Position numbers and translations under genes: made by a program. Positions 2,835 to 15,354 of a stretch of DNA of 43,555 nucleotides are shown one piece after another. The DNA is from a virus (lineage: Duplodnaviria; Heunggongvirae; Uroviricota; Caudoviricetes). Under the pieces are notes generated by a model that was given only the letters and a program-made list of their open reading frames with translations, had not been told where the DNA came from and ran no database searches. The stretch lies in the IMG/VR virus record IMGVR_UViG_2563366965_000004, one strand, 5' to 3'. Position 1 is the first letter of the stretch, and every line of letters begins with the position of its first letter.

Positions 2835-5743
2835 TTATGCCTGAGTACGCAGCGCTTCAAGGCGGCGCAGGTCGAAGTCGTTCAGTTCGTCGGTGTAGTC
2901 AGCAGTGATTGGCGCTGGCCATTCACCTGTGTCGAATCCGGTTGCGATATTGCGCATCGCTTTGCGGTACTCGAGCATACCCAGCTCCAGTAGTTCAGCG
3001 GATGCCTCGATGATGGCGATCCAGTGGTAGTTCTCGTCTTTGTTGACGAAAATCCAGAAGAACTGATCCAGCGCTGCGGTTTCGCAGTACATAGCCGCGC
3101 TCAGGTGATAATCACGTTCAATAATTTCCCGGTGTAGCCTGGCGCGCAGGCTTTCCTGCTTAACATTCCACATGCTGATGGTTTTCAGGTCTGCACCTAT
3201 ACGCACGCCATCCAGGTCGATCTCAAGGTCAGGGCGCACACGAACTTCCAAGCCCGTCTCCTCGTCAAAACCAAAGTAGCTCACCTCAACGGCTCGGCTA
3301 GGGTGGGTCAGCAGCATGCCGGCGGTCGGGTGTGCCAGAAGCGCTTTTTGAATATTCAGCGCGGTGCTCAGCTGCTGGCGGGTGACCAGCACTTTTCCTT
3401 CCGGGTTATCGCGCCAGGCATCCAGCAGTTCGTCGGCAAATACGGCATCTGGTTTGACTGCCTTCACGGCCTGGATCATGTCTGCTTTGGTACCGGACAC
3501 TTTCAGTGGTGCCGGTTTCTGAGCTTCCTGAGCCACAAGGTCAGGGTTGATGATTGCCAACTGCTCCAGTAGCGCGTCACGGCTGCCGCTGGTTTTAACC
3601 GGCGGCGGCAGGGTGGCGTTGTACTCTTTAATGCATGCCTTCATTGCCGTCGCCGTCTGCTTCTGGTCACCATCAATACGCTGGAAGTCAGCTGGCAGCG
3701 CCATATAGTTCTGTGCCGTTTCTTCCAGGTTAGCGCCAAGCGGAACCTGCGGCGGCAGGGTGGCGTTGTACTCTTCCAGTAACACCTTGATGTCGTCGGC
3801 AGACAGCAGCGCCGGCAGGCTGGCATTGTGCTCATCGATAAAGGCGCGCAGGGTCGCGGCCGTTGTGAATGCGCCTTCCGGAATTACGGGTTCAACGCTA
3901 AATTCTTCATCGAGCTGTTCTGGCTGCAACGCCAGCGCATGTACCAGGTTTCCCATGTCCAGCACTGAGGAGCGCTCTTTGACGATGGTTTTCTCTACGT
4001 GGCGCGCATTGAAGTACATCAGCGAAACGCGCGCATCTTTTACCTGGGTGGAACTGATGCCGTTGGCAGCGTGGTAAACCTCGTTCGGCAGACCTTCATA
4101 GCGCCCAGGCTCGAAGTAATCGGGGTAAAAAACAGCTTGTTCGTCAGATTGCGCCTCTGGCTCGACGTGTGCCAAAACTGGTTCAGTCTGGTTTACAGAA
4201 TCGCTATTTTGAGCGACAGATTCCGTATTTTGGTTTACATCGGCCTGCTGGCCGGGATGTGACTCTTCACCAGTTTCCAGACTGCTTTCGCCTGACTGCA
4301 TTTCATTACCAACATTTTTTTCATCACTGACAGTTTCTTGAACCTGCACATTGCTGGTGGTTTCCGTAGCCTGTTTCGTGCCATGAGTTGCTGAGTTCTG
4401 CAGTAAAGCCGTAACATCGAATATTCCGTTGCCGACATTTTTAACCAGTTCTTGTTCGGCTTTATGTGGTTGTGCTGTCGCTTCCTCTGCGCGGCGGCGT
4501 GCTTCTTCTTCACGTACGCGTTGCAGGTTCTCTTCGTGAGTGCAGAAGGGTTTGCGTGGAGACTCCTTACTTTCAGGTTGGGGAATTTCCTGTGTTGCGG
4601 GCTCAGCTTCATGCAATGGCAATAACTCAACAGCAGCATTAAACGCAGCAGTCATGGTCCGGTTAACAAACTCCAGGTGAGCGACAGGAGTTAGATGAAT
4701 ATTTTCCGGCGCGATACGTATCAGGTTAAAAATAGCTGTGCGGTTAACGCCAAGAACGCCGGGTTGATTGCGCAGAATGCTGCTCCATGATTTCCACGGT
4801 TCTTCTTTTTTGGTCACGATTTCTTTAGCGCGACGAAGAATGCTGCCCGGGATCTCGAAGTGGTTGAAGTCCATAGGCAGAAGGGCACATGCAATCTCTA
4901 AATCTAGAGTGTCAAGGGTATGGTATGTATCAGGTCCACGGTCAGTGACGTAACCGCCGTTGGCATTGGTTCCGGAATCAGTACGCTGAACACTACTGAT
5001 GTGATTACCGGCAGCCCATTCACGCGCCAGGATGCCACGGTCAATGTAATCAGTAGCCGCCCACATTCTGGTGAAACGGAGTACCAGCGCGAGTTCGTGA
5101 CGCTTGTCCTGGCTGAACACTTTGCGAATGGCATCGGTGTAGCGCCACAGGTCTTTGGTGTCGTAACCCTTCACTTCCGGGCAGTTCTCAGCAGCTAACA
5201 GCAAGTTCTGGACGTAACTGTTATCAGTGTCCATCTCCAGCGCGCCGATAGCTTCGTACTCTTCGCGGGTTACGTGGTGGCGCAGTTCGTCGGCGGTGAA
5301 CTGGGAAAGCAGTTGCTTACGAAACGGCATCTGCACTACCGGGTAGAGGGTTGAGTCGTCGTCGTGTTCGTCCAGCGTGATGCCAGCGGTTTCTGGCAGC
5401 GTTGACTCAGTAGTTATGTGACTATCAACGGTCTGAGCCGTTTTCTCGTCAGAGTTTTCAGCTGTGACTTTTGGCAGCCAGGTGCGGTCATCGTTCTGCA
5501 GTTCGTAGCGTTCGCACCAGGTGTAATCCACTGCGCCTTCTTCCGGCAGGTCGTCATATACCGGGAAATCGGTGCGGATTGGTTTGGCATAATCTTTACC
5601 GCGGCCAGTTTCTTCAATTCCGGCTTCTTCCAGTGCCACATCGAGTTGGAGATTGGCGCGCGCTACACTTTTCGCAGTGAACCAAATCACTGCATCTTTC
5701 TTGCCAGACTTCTGACTGGCTTTTATCAGATGGAAAAATTCCA
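2835..5743 (-). CDS. recE: RecE-like exodeoxyribonuclease VIII
   Basis: Large ORF with a long acidic/low-complexity N-terminal region and a C-terminal nuclease-like domain; likely start is the ATG at 5743 (GAGGA RBS) rather than the track start at 5849. Confidence 0.65.
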
Positions 5744-5882
5744 TGTGAGATCCTCTTTTTTGAGTGTTAGAATCCCCGGGCCAGAGATAGCGCCCATTGG
5801 ATGTTTTTTGGTTTGGTATAAATTCCGGTGTAACTTTGGTCGGTGGCACCGGACGTGAATCCCGCCTTGCGCGGGTTTTACG

Positions 5883-6262: not shown

Positions 6263-6694
6263 GATGTTCTCCACTATTGCTGAGTGAACTTCGCTGGTGG
6301 TGCCGTGACGCTGATCTTCACAGTTGAGCGTTTTAACTCTGCAATTCACCACCGCGAAGCTCACTTCTGTGTTTGCCCTTGTCGCCAGGCTGGCGGAACG
6401 TTTCAAACCTACTGCGCGTTAATATCACCACCTCATTCCGGTTTTCGTATGCCCCGGACGGCTACTTCGAGGGCTCCATGCCTGGGTGGTTCGTGGTGCG
6501 TCTTGGTGAGTTAGATTAAATCACTGGTTTATATATATGTCAACTTAAGGTTGGTGTTAATTGTAAATCTGAGGTTTATGTGGCTGGGTTTTGTGACACG
6601 TCTGCAGAATCGCAGGCAAAAAAAATCCCGACGCTAAGGTCGAGATCGGGGACTTCGTGGCTGGGTGTTGGCGGCTGAGATGGTGGGTGAGGGT

Positions 6695-6728
6695 GTAAAA
6701 AACCCGGCGCTGTGGCCGGGTTTTTTCA
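6695..6728. terminator. Bidirectional rho-independent terminator
   Basis: GC stem CCCGGCGC/GCGCCGGG-like hairpin (6703-6720) flanked by an A-run upstream and TTTTTT downstream, so it is functional on both strands; ends the repressor-proximal leftward transcript. Confidence 0.65.
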
Positions 6729-6850
6729 TTACTGCTGGTTAAATCCTTTCGGCGAGTGCTGCTGTTCTTTATTACCAAATTTTTGATTTACAATGATTTT
6801 ATAAGCGTTATTGAGAGCTTGCTTTATAGACATTAATATCTCCTTATGTG

Positions 6851-8155
6851 TTATTGACGATTAAAGTAGTTAGAGTTTAGCTCTTTAGGGAAGTAGTGTT
6901 TACGATTTACCCAAACAAATCCATCAACTTTTGATATCACAGCGACATCAACAGGCCCACCGACAGTTTCATAATCATGTGATACTTTTCTTTTGAATGC
7001 AGTGATGTTCACTAATGATTCGGCCATATACGCAAGATCTGCCTTCCCAAGTGATTGCAACATCGATATCATTTTATTTGTATGGTTATTAACAATATAG
7101 CTTTCAAGTTTAGTATCGTGATCTTGTAAAAGTACGTTTTTGAGTTCCTCAATTTCACTGGAGAAGTGATTGGCTAGTACTCCATTGTTCATTGCAGGGA
7201 AAATATTGCTAGAAACATAATGATTAAGCCGATCAAAAACTTCCTCTGTAAGAGTTCTGTTAAAATTAATGATGTTAGGGTTGCACCCATCAATGAAAGT
7301 TACTACTTCATCTTCTTGAGCAAATGGTATAACAAACCCCATATTGGTTACCTCATTATGGGATTTATCATCAATATTATGGATCATCAATTTGTTTTTA
7401 AAAATGCCGTAGATATGAAGAGTGCAAATGGAAGGGTAATATTCTTCCTCTCCATAACCTGTTATAACAATCCCTGAATATGTACGACTAGCATGGACTT
7501 TGAAAATTAAACAAGTGGAATATAATATGACTTTTTCCATAAGCTCTTGCTGTATATTTTCACAGTTATCAAGAACAATAATTGATGAAATGTATGGCGA
7601 TATTAAATCTTGTATATATGCTAAAGCATCATTAAACTCTTCTGTATCAAACCCTTCGAAAAAGAGATTATTCCTTAAGATTTCTATCTCTAAATCAAAG
7701 GCTTGCTTAACTATGTTTTGAAAAATAACATTGTCGAGTTCAACGGCGGGGTTCATTGTTAAATAGTTTACTACATTATTATCATTAATGTATCTCATCA
7801 AACCTTTGAGGTTATCAACAACAAGGTTTATAACGCAAGCCTCTCTCATTTCATTTGTTATAAGGTCTGAGTTACCATTGATGAATTTTACAAAGTCATT
7901 AACATATTCTTTAATGGTAGGGAAACTAGTTTTCCCCAATTGTTTTCTATAGGATTTAATTATAAGTTCCCACGGTGCGCCACCCAGTGTCGCATTATTA
8001 TAAATCATGATCCCCACGGGATGGTGTTTAGATAGTTCGAATAGTTTTTCCGCACTATTATTTATTTTTACTAATCTATTATGCTCTGTGGTGACTGCAG
8101 AGTCAGCAGCAAGGGCGATTCCAGTATTATTTATTACAACAATCTCAGCTGTCAT
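6851..8155 (-). CDS. Proteasome-beta/HslV-like Ntn-hydrolase fusion protein (434 aa), candidate superinfection-exclusion/defence protein
   Basis: Visibly AT-rich gene; ATG at 8155 (track start 8212 is TTG); N-terminus MTAEIVVINNTGIALAADSAVT matches the HslV/proteasome-beta start ([22 protein letters not shown]) including Thr2 and the Asp; C-terminus GGPVDVAVISKVDGF resembles the beta-subunit GGxVxVxxVxxDG(W/F) motif; about 300 unassigned residues between. Confidence 0.55.
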   Translation of the reverse strand: MTAEIVVINNTGIALAADSAVTTEHNRLVKINNSAEKLFELSKHHPVGIMIYNNATLGGAPWELIIKSYRKQLGKTSFPTIKEYVNDFVKFINGNSDLITNEMREACVINLVVDNLKGLMRYINDNNVVNYLTMNPAVELDNVIFQNIVKQAFDLEIEILRNNLFFEGFDTEEFNDALAYIQDLISPYISSIIVLDNCENIQQELMEKVILYSTCLIFKVHASRTYSGIVITGYGEEEYYPSICTLHIYGIFKNKLMIHNIDDKSHNEVTNMGFVIPFAQEDEVVTFIDGCNPNIINFNRTLTEEVFDRLNHYVSSNIFPAMNNGVLANHFSSEIEELKNVLLQDHDTKLESYIVNNHTNKMISMLQSLGKADLAYMAESLVNITAFKRKVSHDYETVGGPVDVAVISKVDGFVWVNRKHYFPKELNSNYFNRQ

Positions 8156-8297
8156 TGCAAAACATCCCGTGTAGTAGTGATAAATATTAATTAAATTGAT
8201 AGTTTTTTTCAATCTAACATAAATGGCGGAATCACCCCCCCAGTAAAGACATCATTGTCTCATGGGAACTAAAAATTCAGGACAAACCTAAAGCGAT

Positions 8298-8681
8298 TCA
8301 GTCCCCCTGCGAGCGAATCCGCCCCTTCATGTACTTCTCGTACAGCTCATCTAACTCTTTCAGGCGAAGCGCAAAAATGCGGAGCATGTTCTGCTGCTCT
8401 TCTTCCGGTAACTGGCGGTAGAGCTCGAGCAAACGCTGTTCGTCCGGTTTGAGACCGTCTTTCTCTCCAACGTCTTCACCGAGTAGCCAGGCGACAGAAA
8501 TACCAACAGCGTCGGCTATGGCCAGTGCCGATTTCTTACTAATCACGCCTTTTTTGAACCAGCCGTTTACGGCCTGAGGGGTGACTCCAGCTATTCTTGC
8601 CATGTCTGCTTTGGTAACGCCGCGATCAGTGATCTCAGTAAGGCGCTCCACCAGAACGAGGTTGGGTTCTTCTTTTCTCAT
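8298..8681 (-). CDS. Prophage repressor, XRE-family HTH (no S24 peptidase domain)
   Basis: ATG at 8681; 127 aa with HTH (VTKADMARIAGVTPQAVNGWFKKG) and a short coiled C-terminus; divergent from the Cro-like gene; track ORF 8298..8951 is an upstream read-through. Confidence 0.75.
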   Translation of the reverse strand: MRKEEPNLVLVERLTEITDRGVTKADMARIAGVTPQAVNGWFKKGVISKKSALAIADAVGISVAWLLGEDVGEKDGLKPDEQRLLELYRQLPEEEQQNMLRIFALRLKELDELYEKYMKGRIRSQGD

Positions 8682-8783
8682 ATGGTCATTGTAAATATTT
8701 GGTTTATGCACGCAATAAATCCAAAGTTTGCATGAAGTATAAATCTGTGGTTTACTTCTGCTATCAATAAGCAGGAGAAGCAC
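8682..8783. promoter_or_regulatory. Divergent immunity promoter/operator region
   Basis: 102-bp AT-rich spacer between divergent repressor and cro-like starts; repeated TGGTTTA(T/C) motifs (8700-8712 and 8755-8765) are candidate operator half-sites. Confidence 0.4.
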
Positions 8784-9002
8784 ATGTCCGCACTCGATAA
8801 AGCAATTAAAGCCGCTGGCTCTGCCAGAAAGCTCAGCATCGCGCTTGGTGTGACGAGTATGTCTGTAAGTCATTGGAAGAATCGTGACCAAGGGATCGTC
8901 CCGCCAAGCTATATCTTCCCGATTTTCAAAATGACAGGCGTAACCCCCCACGAGCTGCGCCCTGATCTCTATCCAAATCCCACTGACGGATTACCAAAGT
9001 AG
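8784..9002 (+). CDS. Cro-like / YdaS-family HTH regulator
   Basis: 72-aa ORF divergent from the repressor; HTH-like SARKLSIALGVTSMSVSHWKNR. Confidence 0.65.
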   Translation: MSALDKAIKAAGSARKLSIALGVTSMSVSHWKNRDQGIVPPSYIFPIFKMTGVTPHELRPDLYPNPTDGLPK

Positions 9003-9013
9003 GAGCACTGACA

Positions 9014-9571
9014 ATGCAAACACTTTCTTTTCAACAGAATAACAGAGCGCCATCAGAGCACCTGAAATTCCAGTATCAACACAGTGAGGCTGAAGGCCAG
9101 CCGGTCGATCACCGGGCTATCTGTTCTGCCGTCCGCGCCTGGGCGGCGGCAGAGGGCCGCGTGGCGGTCGCTCTGGCGATTAAAGAGGCTGCCGAACAGG
9201 CCGAGCTTGACAGCATTGACATGACCGGCAGCGCCGATGTGTGGAACGTGAAGCTGTTTCGCTGGCTGGACAACCACGAGAAATCACCGGCCTACCGGGC
9301 GAACGTCGAGCAGCTGGCGCCGGTAATAATTTCGGTTCTGCCGCTGGCGTACCGGGATCGCGTGATTAAGCACGACTGCTTTGCGGTTCGTGTCGCCAGG
9401 TCGGTGAAAGAAGACGCTGAGGCGATACAGGCTGTCGTCCTCAAAGCCCCCAGACACGAACGGATGAAGGAAATCAGCGAGAGCATCGTAGCCAAGCTCT
9501 ACCTGGACGGACCTGATTCTGTGGCGCCCATTATGGCGATGGTTACAACGATGCTGGGTGGTGCGCTATGA
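9014..9571 (+). CDS. YdaT-like regulatory protein (CII position)
   Basis: 185 aa directly after the cro-like gene; segment KLFRWLDNHEKSPAYRANVEQLAPVI resembles my recollection of Rac YdaT. Confidence 0.45.
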   Translation: MQTLSFQQNNRAPSEHLKFQYQHSEAEGQPVDHRAICSAVRAWAAAEGRVAVALAIKEAAEQAELDSIDMTGSADVWNVKLFRWLDNHEKSPAYRANVEQLAPVIISVLPLAYRDRVIKHDCFAVRVARSVKEDAEAIQAVVLKAPRHERMKEISESIVAKLYLDGPDSVAPIMAMVTTMLGGAL

Positions 9572-13619: not shown

Positions 13620-14270
13620 ATGAGCGACAACCAGTTAGCACCTTGTTGGGAATTTCAGCCTTACCTTGCTGAAAGCAATGTTCGTCAGTTGTTAGCGGAA
13701 ATTGCTAATGTACTCGAGCAATTGTACTACCACAAACACACACTGGACAGTAACTGGTCCGAAGGTGTAAGGGCTTATGATTGGGTCAGAAATCATTTGA
13801 TTCAAAGTGAAGGGACACTGCCGGGTCTGGAAATGGTTTCGAAGGGACTGGATTATGTGGTTGCGTTAAATAAAGTGCCGCTGCAGTTCTCCAAAGATTG
13901 CATTAATAACCCGAAGAAGAAGCATCGCCTTCTTCGAAATAGGGTGGAGCATGAGCAACTTTCATTGTTCGGTGAAACTGAAGCCGAGCAAGATATTACA
14001 TGGCGGATCATCGCCGAACCATTTTTATCCGATGAAGAAGATGGCGAGCTGGAATCAACATTGCCTCGCTGGGAAGTGGCTTTAGTTGGGTTTAACGCAT
14101 ATGGTGCCCAGATCAGTATGGTTTCACACCAATCTACTGCTTCAGCGCCGCTTATGTCTCTTGATACCAACACTCTTCCGGATGAAGCTGAGATTGGCAA
14201 AGCCTCTCTTCGCCGCCGTAAAAAAGATCAAGATTTGGATGTGAGCAGTAATGGAACATCAAGTGAATGA
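13620..14270 (+). CDS. Hypothetical protein (216 aa), candidate effector/toxin partner of the ImmA-like protein
   Basis: AT-rich ORF with no motif I recognise; 3' end overlaps the next gene by 20 nt (translational coupling). Confidence 0.55.
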   Translation: MSDNQLAPCWEFQPYLAESNVRQLLAEIANVLEQLYYHKHTLDSNWSEGVRAYDWVRNHLIQSEGTLPGLEMVSKGLDYVVALNKVPLQFSKDCINNPKKKHRLLRNRVEHEQLSLFGETEAEQDITWRIIAEPFLSDEEDGELESTLPRWEVALVGFNAYGAQISMVSHQSTASAPLMSLDTNTLPDEAEIGKASLRRRKKDQDLDVSSNGTSSE

Positions 14271-15354
14271 CTTTGCTGAGTATCGTGGGGATAAGCTCAA
14301 ATTAGCCAGAATGGCTGTTGGGCTCTCCTGCGAAGAGTTAGCGGAGAAAATTGGTAAAACAAAACAATTCGTTAGCAAATTGGAAAAAGGGTTTAAACCA
14401 TCAGAACAGTTGTTAGAATTAATCTCATCTGCGCTGATGATTAAATCTGATTTCCTATTTACTGAACGAAAATATGCTTTAGAAAGCGATGTTTGCCATT
14501 TTCGGAGTAAAAAATCGAGAACCCAAACATTAACCAATAGTGTTCTGGCAAGGGCGGAGATTCTTAACATTATAATCTCTGCCGTTGAGGGAGAAATCGA
14601 GTTTCCTGATGTTTTCATACCTGAGCACCCCGGTGCTGAATTGCTGACTCCAAATGATATTGAACGTGTAGCGGAAGACTGCAGAAGAGCATGGAACTTA
14701 GGGCTGGGACCTATATCCTCAATGGTCAAACTGGCTGAGAGTTTGGGGGTTATTGTTGCTCATGTGACAGGAGTGGATGACCGCGTAGATGCTTTTACTG
14801 TTCATAACAACAGGCCAGTAATCATCCGAAATAACGTCAAAAAGAGTATATGCAGATTCCGATCAGATTTAGGTCACGAATTGGGGCACTTGGTTATGCA
14901 CGAAGGTATAACCACAGGAGATAAAGTGACTGAATCGCAAGCGGATCGTTTTTCAAGCGCGTTGCTAGTTCCTCGATTGTCCTTTATTAAAGAGTTTCCC
15001 CGTATACGAGGAAGACAGTTCGATTGGAACGCCCTAGTTGAGTTTAAGCTTCGGTGGAAGATTAGTCTTAAAATGTGCATTTACCGAGCAACAACTCTAG
15101 GCCTGCTGACGCAGGAGCAGGCAAGAACAGGTTATATGCATTTGAACTCTAAAGGATATACGAAAGTTGAACCAGGAGATGAATTTATTCGCCCGGAAGA
15201 ACCGAGTATGTTAGCTGAGGCGATTGAAATGCTGGATGATGCAACATGGATGAGCATTCTCATGAAAACTGGTTTAAGCCAGGAGTTGGTTAGGGAGTTA
15301 TTCTCGGTAAACCGCCCACTGTCAAATCCAAGAAATCTACTTCAACTGGTTTGA
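14251..15354 (+). CDS. HTH-XRE / ImmA-IrrE family zinc metallopeptidase fusion protein
   Basis: N-terminal HTH (LSCEELAEKIGKTKQFVSKLEKG) and HEXXH zinc-binding motif (HELGHLVMHE) in the COG2856/ImmA-IrrE arrangement; 367 aa. Confidence 0.8.
   Translation: MEHQVNDFAEYRGDKLKLARMAVGLSCEELAEKIGKTKQFVSKLEKGFKPSEQLLELISSALMIKSDFLFTERKYALESDVCHFRSKKSRTQTLTNSVLARAEILNIIISAVEGEIEFPDVFIPEHPGAELLTPNDIERVAEDCRRAWNLGLGPISSMVKLAESLGVIVAHVTGVDDRVDAFTVHNNRPVIIRNNVKKSICRFRSDLGHELGHLVMHEGITTGDKVTESQADRFSSALLVPRLSFIKEFPRIRGRQFDWNALVEFKLRWKISLKMCIYRATTLGLLTQEQARTGYMHLNSKGYTKVEPGDEFIRPEEPSMLAEAIEMLDDATWMSILMKTGLSQELVRELFSVNRPLSNPRNLLQLV

Follow-up and report, generated by a model that had tools for sequence, protein, structure and literature searches.

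A predicted proteasome-like threonine enzyme and a small partner gene form a mobile cassette beside the repressor gene of a Rac-type prophage

The DNA analysed here (the window) is the 43,555-nucleotide virus record IMGVR_UViG_2563366965_000004 of IMG/VR (Caudoviricetes), which is 99.9% identical to a Rac-type prophage integrated beside kch in E. coli ET881. A minus-strand gene at positions 6851–8155, referred to as the large gene, and a 34-codon gene directly downstream constitute a self-contained mobile cassette that moves as a unit. The product of the large gene is identified with high confidence as a proteasome-like threonine enzyme with an intact catalytic triad. That the pair acts as a proteolytic switch with an anti-phage benefit is proposed at somewhat less than even confidence. 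An earlier reading of the window from its letters alone (the sequence-only reading) had singled out the large gene as an AT-rich gene in a sieB/rex-type position, encoding a proteasome/HslV-like fusion protein and a candidate undescribed exclusion or defence protein.

The large gene is a 434-codon open reading frame (ORF) with the N-terminal sequence MTAEIVVINNTG and a stop codon at 6851–6853. The gene and the features of its product are located as follows.

6851–8155, minus strand: large gene, encoding a predicted proteasome-beta-like N-terminal-threonine (Ntn) hydrolase of the PMI-4 type, 434 residues
8150–8152, minus strand: codon of Thr2, the predicted nucleophile after Met removal
8102–8104, minus strand: codon of Asp18, the equivalent of proteasome Asp/Glu17
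8045–8047, minus strand: codon of Lys37, the equivalent of proteasome Lys33
7502–7855, minus strand: helical insertion 1 (approximately residues 101–218), in or after the H1/H2 layer of the model, with no beta-subunit counterpart in the profile comparison
7052–7279, minus strand: helical insertion 2 (approximately residues 293–368), between H3 and H4 of the model, a gap in the profile comparison
6911–6967, minus strand: C-terminal core motif TVGGPVDVAVISKVDGFVW (residues 397–415), near-invariant and aligned with SGGMIDVAVITRKDGYV of archaeal proteasome beta

An AlphaFold2 model of the large protein, built on 44 homologues (pLDDT 86.9, pTM 0.81), contains an alpha-beta-beta-alpha sandwich core that is superposable on proteasome subunits, the fold of the MEROPS T1/Pfam PF00227 superfamily. 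In a Foldseek search of the PDB with this model, the top matches were solely proteasome beta subunits and Anbu (E 1e-4, probability 1.0), and a BFVD search returned only other proteasome-like viral proteins. The N-terminal part of the model consists of core strands (residues 4–60), helices (62–94), a helical block (approximately 101–218) and further core strands (227–277). The C-terminal part consists of a helix (281–289), two long helices (293–368), another helix (371–391) and the last core strands (402–416). The sequence-only reading had described a fusion in which about 300 unrelated residues separate the two proteasome-like ends, and had suggested a structure prediction as a check on whether an Ntn fold is split by an insertion. 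The fold is indeed split, by two helical insertions, and the fusion was rejected: the model and the profile alignment reveal a single proteasome-like domain with core strands between the insertions.

Searches with the sequence of the large protein yielded no match in Pfam, NCBIfam or PADLOC (PADLOC-DB 2.0.0). No Pfam family, PF00227 included, was matched even at E <= 10, and no PADLOC family at E <= 1. A full-length match was obtained to PHROG 5990, which has no annotated function, and the SieB, RexA and RexB families were absent from the Pfam, PHROG and NCBIfam results. A single-sequence search of the PDB gave no match, and a profile search of the PDB sequences placed the Thermoplasma beta subunit first, at a sub-threshold E value of 0.84, through GGxIDVAVIxKxDG. 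For profile–profile comparison with hhalign, an alignment of archaeal beta subunits was assembled by a search seeded with a Thermoplasma sequence, and its aligned members are database proteins carrying PF00227. The full-length comparison was partial (58–80%), but after excision of residues 101–199 and 293–368 from a 219-sequence family alignment, it reached 94.8% probability and an E value of 5.5e-8 over 178 columns. The full-length comparison is weak because the insertions break the alignment, and the relationship becomes convincing only after their excision.

The hhalign alignment pairs T2, D18 and K37 (in EKLFEL) of the large protein with Thr1, Glu17 and Lys33 (in KKLFQI) of the archaeal beta subunits, and TVGGPVDVAVISKVDGF with SGGMIDVAVITKKDGY. 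Conservation was assessed in 219 diverse relatives from many phyla that are 32–42% identical to the query. T2 is conserved in 98% of these proteins, and D18, S19, K37, G233, G235 and D403 in 100%. Conservation across a very large family is highest in the N- and C-terminal motifs quoted in the sequence-only reading, and the assignment in that reading of Thr2 as the would-be nucleophile, of an Asp in the catalytic position and of a nearby Lys agrees with both the conservation and the alignment. The C-terminal proteasome-beta motif that it recognised is likewise present, as GGxxDVAVI-K-DG, and aligns with the archaeal beta subunit. Nearly all of the 219 relatives begin with Met-Thr, and residue 1 stands at profile position 1 in nearly all of the 150 library representatives listed; the family therefore lacks a propeptide.

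The Met-Thr N-terminus of the family also makes 8155 the likely start of the large gene. Some pipelines call a protein of 466 or 467 residues from an upstream start. A run of G lies just upstream of the large gene (approximately 8236–8254, minus strand), and the upstream frame is closed in the window; the G run probably explains the N-terminally extended calls.

Proteasome homologues were surveyed by Fuchs, Alva and Lupas in 2021, who described 22 new ones (PMC8665760). Among them, 'Proteasome homolog with Multiple Insertions 4' (PMI-4), the largest PMI class, is defined by the lack of a propeptide together with long insertions at two sites, after H1/H2 and between H3/H4, and occurs in Proteobacteria, Firmicutes, Actinobacteria, Bacteroidetes, the Planctomycetes-Verrucomicrobia-Chlamydiae (PVC) group, Cyanobacteria, Euryarchaeota and phages (PMC8665760). 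The authors expected the insertions to impede ring and double-ring assembly, and reported neither a function nor an informative gene context for PMI-4 (PMC8665760). The large protein fits PMI-4, whose representative is HDY66466.1, on the described features, which are the basis of the assignment. It shares with PMI-4 the proteasome-like core, the Thr1/Asp17/Lys33 residues, the absence of a propeptide, the insertions after H1/H2 and between H3/H4, and the taxonomic range of a large cross-phylum family that includes Euryarchaeota and phages. The placement of insertion 1 relative to H2 is approximate and matches the description of PMI-3 and PMI-4; insertion 2 is described for PMI-2 to PMI-6.

The family comprises 6057 clusters at 50% identity. 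Relatives with 31–38% identity were found in Nitrospirota, Clostridia, Planctomycetota, Bacteroidota, Cyanobacteria, Actinomycetota, Acidobacteriota, bacteria of the candidate phyla radiation and several archaeal lineages. Family members were confirmed at 223 viral-contig loci, and occur in phages of Stenotrophomonas, Providencia and Porphyromonas and in streptococcal satellites. The protein is accordingly not undescribed in its proteasome relationship, which is already catalogued with the features of PMI-4 (PMC8665760), but literature searches, also for work after the 2021 paper, found no functional study of the family and no link to defence. The new elements described here are the two-gene architecture and the prophage exclusion-slot context, neither of which appears in the 2021 paper (PMC8665760).

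The large protein differs from 20S proteasome beta subunits and Anbu in carrying approximately 230 extra residues in its two helical insertions, in having no PF00227 match, alpha subunit, propeptide or unfoldase gene, and in its doubtful capacity for ring assembly. The Ntn fold proposed in the sequence-only reading is borne out by the model, Foldseek and hhalign, but the HslV likeness is not. HslV (ClpQ) is a compact protein of approximately 175 residues encoded with the AAA+ protein HslU, whereas the large protein is not compact, has two insertions and lacks a neighbouring AAA+ gene, and its structural score is lower against HslV than against beta subunits. Membership in HslV was rejected. 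Connectase, an archaeal proteasome-like protein ligase, is a monomeric proteasome homologue that acts as a sequence-specific transpeptidase; it is without H1/H2, carries a lid between S3 and S4, and acts on a substrate, MtrA, that is not a mini-protein encoded alongside it.

The second gene of the cassette lies between the large gene and a bidirectional terminator and was overlooked in the sequence-only reading.

6729–6833, minus strand: partner gene, 34 residues, MSIKQALNNAYKIIVNQKFGNKEQQHSPKGFNQQ, with its ATG at 6833 and its TAA at 6729, starting 17 nt past the large-gene stop
6840–6846, minus strand: Shine-Dalgarno sequence TAAGGAG of the small ORF, 6 nt ahead of its ATG

The same arrangement is observed in Klebsiella, Serratia, Rahnella and other relatives, in which the large protein is only 42–70% identical. 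The first half of the small protein follows the conserved pattern MS-[LIV]-[KQE]-Q-x-[LIV]-x-x-AYK-x-[IL]-x-x-x-[KRH]-[FY], and its tail varies in sequence and stays open. Across the family, a co-oriented small ORF follows the large gene in 122 of 127 members (96%), compared with 79 of 513 control ORFs (15%; Fisher p = 2e-69). The 127 members represent distinct sequence contexts from all phyla, the controls are other large ORFs in the same loci, and a small ORF was counted when an ATG-initiated frame of 30–90 codons started between −30 and +40 of the large-gene stop. The starts of the small ORFs often overlap the stop of the large gene, and a 55-codon ORF occupies the partner position in both a streptococcal satellite and a Porphyromonas phage. 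On this evidence, a functional pairing of the small gene with the large gene is highly likely.

Among the small proteins, the median length is 59 residues and the median net charge +4, with 32% of residues charged; none of the 127 contains a membrane-like segment. One recognisable small-protein family, with ...S-x-x-E-[FW]-E-K-x-[FY]-[FLN]-P... followed by a second helix, is found at about one-third of the loci. Its database matches are hypothetical proteins of 45–119 residues without Pfam domains. When two such matches were looked up in reverse, they were found directly after genes for 431- and 435-residue proteins without a Pfam match. Ten small proteins searched against Pfam gave no match, and the small protein of the window matched neither Pfam nor, at E <= 0.01, PADLOC. 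No natural fusion of the large and small genes was seen among the listed homologues of either protein, and the neighbourhood analysis found no third conserved neighbour or associated AAA+ gene.

An alternative reading of the pair is a peptide-processing or ligation system, in which the small ORF would be a precursor that is cut or transferred by the Ntn enzyme in the manner of Connectase to give a signalling or effector peptide. This explanation is distinctly unlikely: no exporter, modification enzyme or receptor gene lies beside the pair, the small-protein motif is not kept in all clades and its Pro is missing from the class found in the window, and the S3/S4 lid, the defining feature of Connectase, is absent from the family.

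The mobility of the pair is evident from the borders of the variable DNA in which it lies. The cassette, its signals and the adjoining repressor gene are located as follows.

6727–8301, minus strand: AT-rich variable cassette consisting of a promoter-like region, the large gene and the small gene, with borders from blastn against sister prophages and from the GC profile
8184–8212, minus strand: weak sigma-70-like promoter candidate (TTGAAA, 17 nt, TAATAT; 9/12 matches in a consensus scan), inside the cassette upstream of the large gene
6697–6726, both strands: bidirectional intrinsic terminator AAAAAACCCGGCCACAGCGCCGGGTTTTTT, read from the sequence, directly after the small-ORF stop and part of the conserved prophage backbone
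8298–8711, minus strand: prophage repressor gene (137 residues, HTH_3/CI-like by ET881 annotation and Pfam), divergent from ydaS/ydaT-like genes; context outside the cassette

Two sister Rac-type prophages (L002 and L003) match the window on both flanks and carry other genes in the slot. Homology to the window, as detected by blastn, ends at 6634 and restarts at 8302 in L002, and ends at 6726 and restarts at 8326 in L003; the variable segment therefore spans approximately 6727–8301. One end of the cassette abuts the repressor stop codon and the other the A-tract of the backbone terminator, and its borders coincide with the two genes. The corresponding slot (L002 4219–5001; L003 4222–5604) holds genes for a 173-residue coiled-coil protein and an 84-residue protein in one sister, and for 211- and 101-residue proteins and a second helix-turn-helix (HTH) protein in the other. 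In K-12 Rac, the same slot is the kilR–racR interval and contains sieB, ydaF and ydaG. The guanine-plus-cytosine (GC) content is 0.31–0.36 over 6800–8200 and approximately 0.50 on both flanks, with approximately 32% GC in the large ORF, which confirms the AT-rich composition first noted from the sequence. Separate acquisition of the large gene from the flanking prophage genes, as the sequence-only reading had proposed, is supported by the borders obtained from comparison with sister prophages whose slot holds other cargo. The cassette is rare and patchy in the species, being carried by 13 of 5426 complete E. coli genomes.

In ET881, the genes are arranged in the order integrase, RecT, RecE, YdaE, kil-like gene, large gene, HTH repressor, divergent YdaS/YdaT and replication genes. 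The repressor matches Pfam HTH_3 at 1.8e-6 and, more weakly, a phage CI repressor family. It lies upstream of the large ORF on the same strand, with 142 nt from the end of the repressor to the large ORF, and a consensus scan found no terminator-like site between the two. The position assigned to the gene in the sequence-only reading, downstream of the repressor on the same strand in a sieB/rex-type slot, is correct, because the repressor is adjacent and the K-12 Rac interval holds sieB. The repressor-adjacent placement, and probably the expression logic, are shared with sieB of Rac and rexAB of lambda. The sieB and rexAB products have no sequence or fold relationship to the large protein, and exclusion by the cassette is only putative.

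The bidirectional terminator that the sequence-only reading had placed at the end of the large gene exists at 6697–6726, but the 34-codon ORF with its strong Shine-Dalgarno sequence lies in between. From 6726 to 6697, the terminator reads AAAAAA-CCCGGC-CACAGC-GCCGGG-TTTTTT, a 6-bp GC stem between an A-tract and a T-tract; it is absent from the list of the consensus scanner. A second terminator-like hairpin with a T-run (6624–6647, minus strand) is located approximately 50 nt past it, just where L002 homology is lost. An Rfam scan of 6300–9100 gave only sub-threshold chance matches.

Outside the window, the gene recurs at stereotyped positions in prophages. It directly follows cI (HTH_3 and Peptidase_S24) in Klebsiella lambdoid prophages, and a repressor of the window type precedes it in 13 loci. 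In Serratia, the gene is found between the antiterminator gene Q and the holin gene on the opposite strand. A homologue of the Serratia Q gene lies downstream in convergent orientation in another 32 viral loci, the Q side alone having been compared. In the streptococcal satellite Javan421, the pair is located in the accessory end near RelBE. In Vibrio vulnificus (L172/L173), it lies beside a filamentous-phage-like element that encodes Zot and beside a PLD-like gene, in the vicinity of matP and lon. A Brocadiaceae metagenome-assembled genome (L171 1–4177) contains a family member and a 58-residue partner directly downstream of SIR2_2 and DUF87 (HerA-like) genes; SIR2 and HerA-like proteins are a known defence pair, found beside a family member once. 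In a raw tally of 149 near neighbours, sampled from 64 diverse genomes, the matches to defence models were MTase-Fic, PD-T4-6, PDC-S11, PDC-S01, HEC-06, dCTP deaminase and mad2.

In a Porphyromonas phage, the family gene lies among head and neck genes. This location, and the presence of family members in Stenotrophomonas and Providencia phages, would suit a function that serves the phage, such as counter-defence through degradation of a host immunity protein or the processing of phage or host proteins. Such a function is very unlikely, since most genome-sampled members are outside recognisable prophage contexts and the enterobacterial prophage sites are moron slots of the kind presumably expressed in the lysogen, and many face away from the late genes on the other strand.

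The compact operon, with its overlapping or coupled genes, is also what an addiction or toxin–antitoxin-like module would look like. In such a module the two genes would selfishly stabilise their own carriage, for instance through a short-lived inhibitor that keeps a damaging protease in check, with no specific sensing of phage. The pair is carried on prophages, on satellites by RelBE and at varied chromosomal sites without fixed neighbours, and Zeta-toxin and Fic neighbours occur. The proportions, a 434-residue component with a downstream partner of 34–87 residues, are unusual for classical type II systems, however, and plasmids seldom carry homologues (10 among 72,556 records, most of them megaplasmids). 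An addiction module is accordingly judged unlikely; it overlaps the anti-phage interpretation because many toxin–antitoxin modules are themselves defence systems.

For the preferred interpretation, a proteolytic switch to the advantage of the lysogen, the following mechanism is proposed. Methionine aminopeptidase, from its known specificity, would remove Met1 and expose Thr2 as the N-terminal nucleophile, supported by Asp18 and Lys37 and without a propeptide. The two helical insertions would replace the surfaces that proteasome subunits use for stacked rings, and the large protein is therefore probably a specific enzyme rather than a bulk degradation chamber. The small gene, predicted to be translationally linked, would supply a small, basic and soluble protein that acts as a dedicated partner of the enzyme, whether as its substrate, as a pseudo-substrate inhibitor or as a specificity factor. 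The location of the pair between the repressor and the backbone terminator leads to an expectation of expression in the lysogen, which could arise from repressor read-through, from the candidate promoter or from both. The small protein may restrain the protease until infection upsets the balance, and the most likely benefit would be exclusion or abortive infection of a superinfecting phage.

A conflict-system role is favoured by the stereotyped siting in moron slots, by carriage on satellites, by a patchy spread across domains and by the foreign base composition. Defence itself is an inference, given that PADLOC gave no match and the literature searches no link to defence, and is advanced as a tentative possibility that falls clearly short of even confidence. 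In its fullest form, a new anti-phage or abortive-infection system whose effector is a proteasome-like protease or a Connectase-like transpeptidase, controlled by a mini-protein, spread horizontally in Bacteria and Archaea and carried in the exclusion slots of prophages and satellites, the proposal is somewhat unlikely.

Several observations weigh against a switch with an anti-phage role. Equivalents of proteasome Ser129, Asp166 and Ser169 are not clearly kept in the large protein, Ser169 being paired with Val398, whose neighbours T397 and E396 are conserved. Near the oxyanion position (Gly47), the protein of the window has Asn where the family consensus is Gly. With these deviations, enzymatic activity is likely but not certain. 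The common ancestry of the small ORFs is drawn from position only, because the enterobacterial class (MSxxQxxxNAYK...KF) and the widespread class (...EFEKxYFP...) stayed separate in iterated hidden Markov model searches. The alternative cargo of L002 and L003 is coiled-coil or uncharacterised, with no convincing PADLOC match, and is not recognised defence. The family, with all its clusters, was not flagged in the earlier defence-island screens represented in PADLOC. An insert of 32% GC is a typical H-NS target in E. coli and could be silent.

Defence-type genes are also a minority of the 149 near neighbours, many of which are housekeeping genes (ThiC, Hsp70, SAICAR synthetase). This bears on a further explanation, an ordinary cellular protease with a housekeeping role that is passenger DNA in the prophage, which would agree with the wide distribution, with the housekeeping neighbours in many genomes and with the lack of informative context in the survey of Fuchs et al. 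(PMC8665760). A housekeeping passenger is nevertheless highly improbable in view of the patchy, low-frequency distribution, the foreign composition, the precise cassette borders and the repeated, stereotyped positions in prophages and satellites.

Two other modules of the same prophage were observed. A RecE-family exonuclease ORF (2835–5849, minus strand) comprises 1004 codons from a GTG, compared with 969 residues in the ET881 annotation. RecT lies beyond it according to that annotation (window positions below 2835), and the Rac-type recombination module looks intact. A second AT-rich island (GC approximately 0.40–0.45) carries a RosmerTA defence system (13620–15354, plus strand), with a 216-residue RmrT (2.4e-26) and a 367-residue RmrA composed of an HTH and an ImmA/IrrE peptidase (1.6e-106).

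Threonine enzymes of the proteasome type are not known as effectors in either bacterial immunity or toxin–antitoxin modules, and PMI-4 is one of the largest proteasome-like families without an assigned function. The mini-protein gene found with nearly every member and the siting in an exclusion slot open the function of the pair to a direct test in E. coli, for which a 1.6-kb clone is enough. Even if the pair does not serve defence, a monomer-like proteasome homologue with a cognate peptide would be a possible specific protease or ligase of biotechnological interest, as is Connectase.

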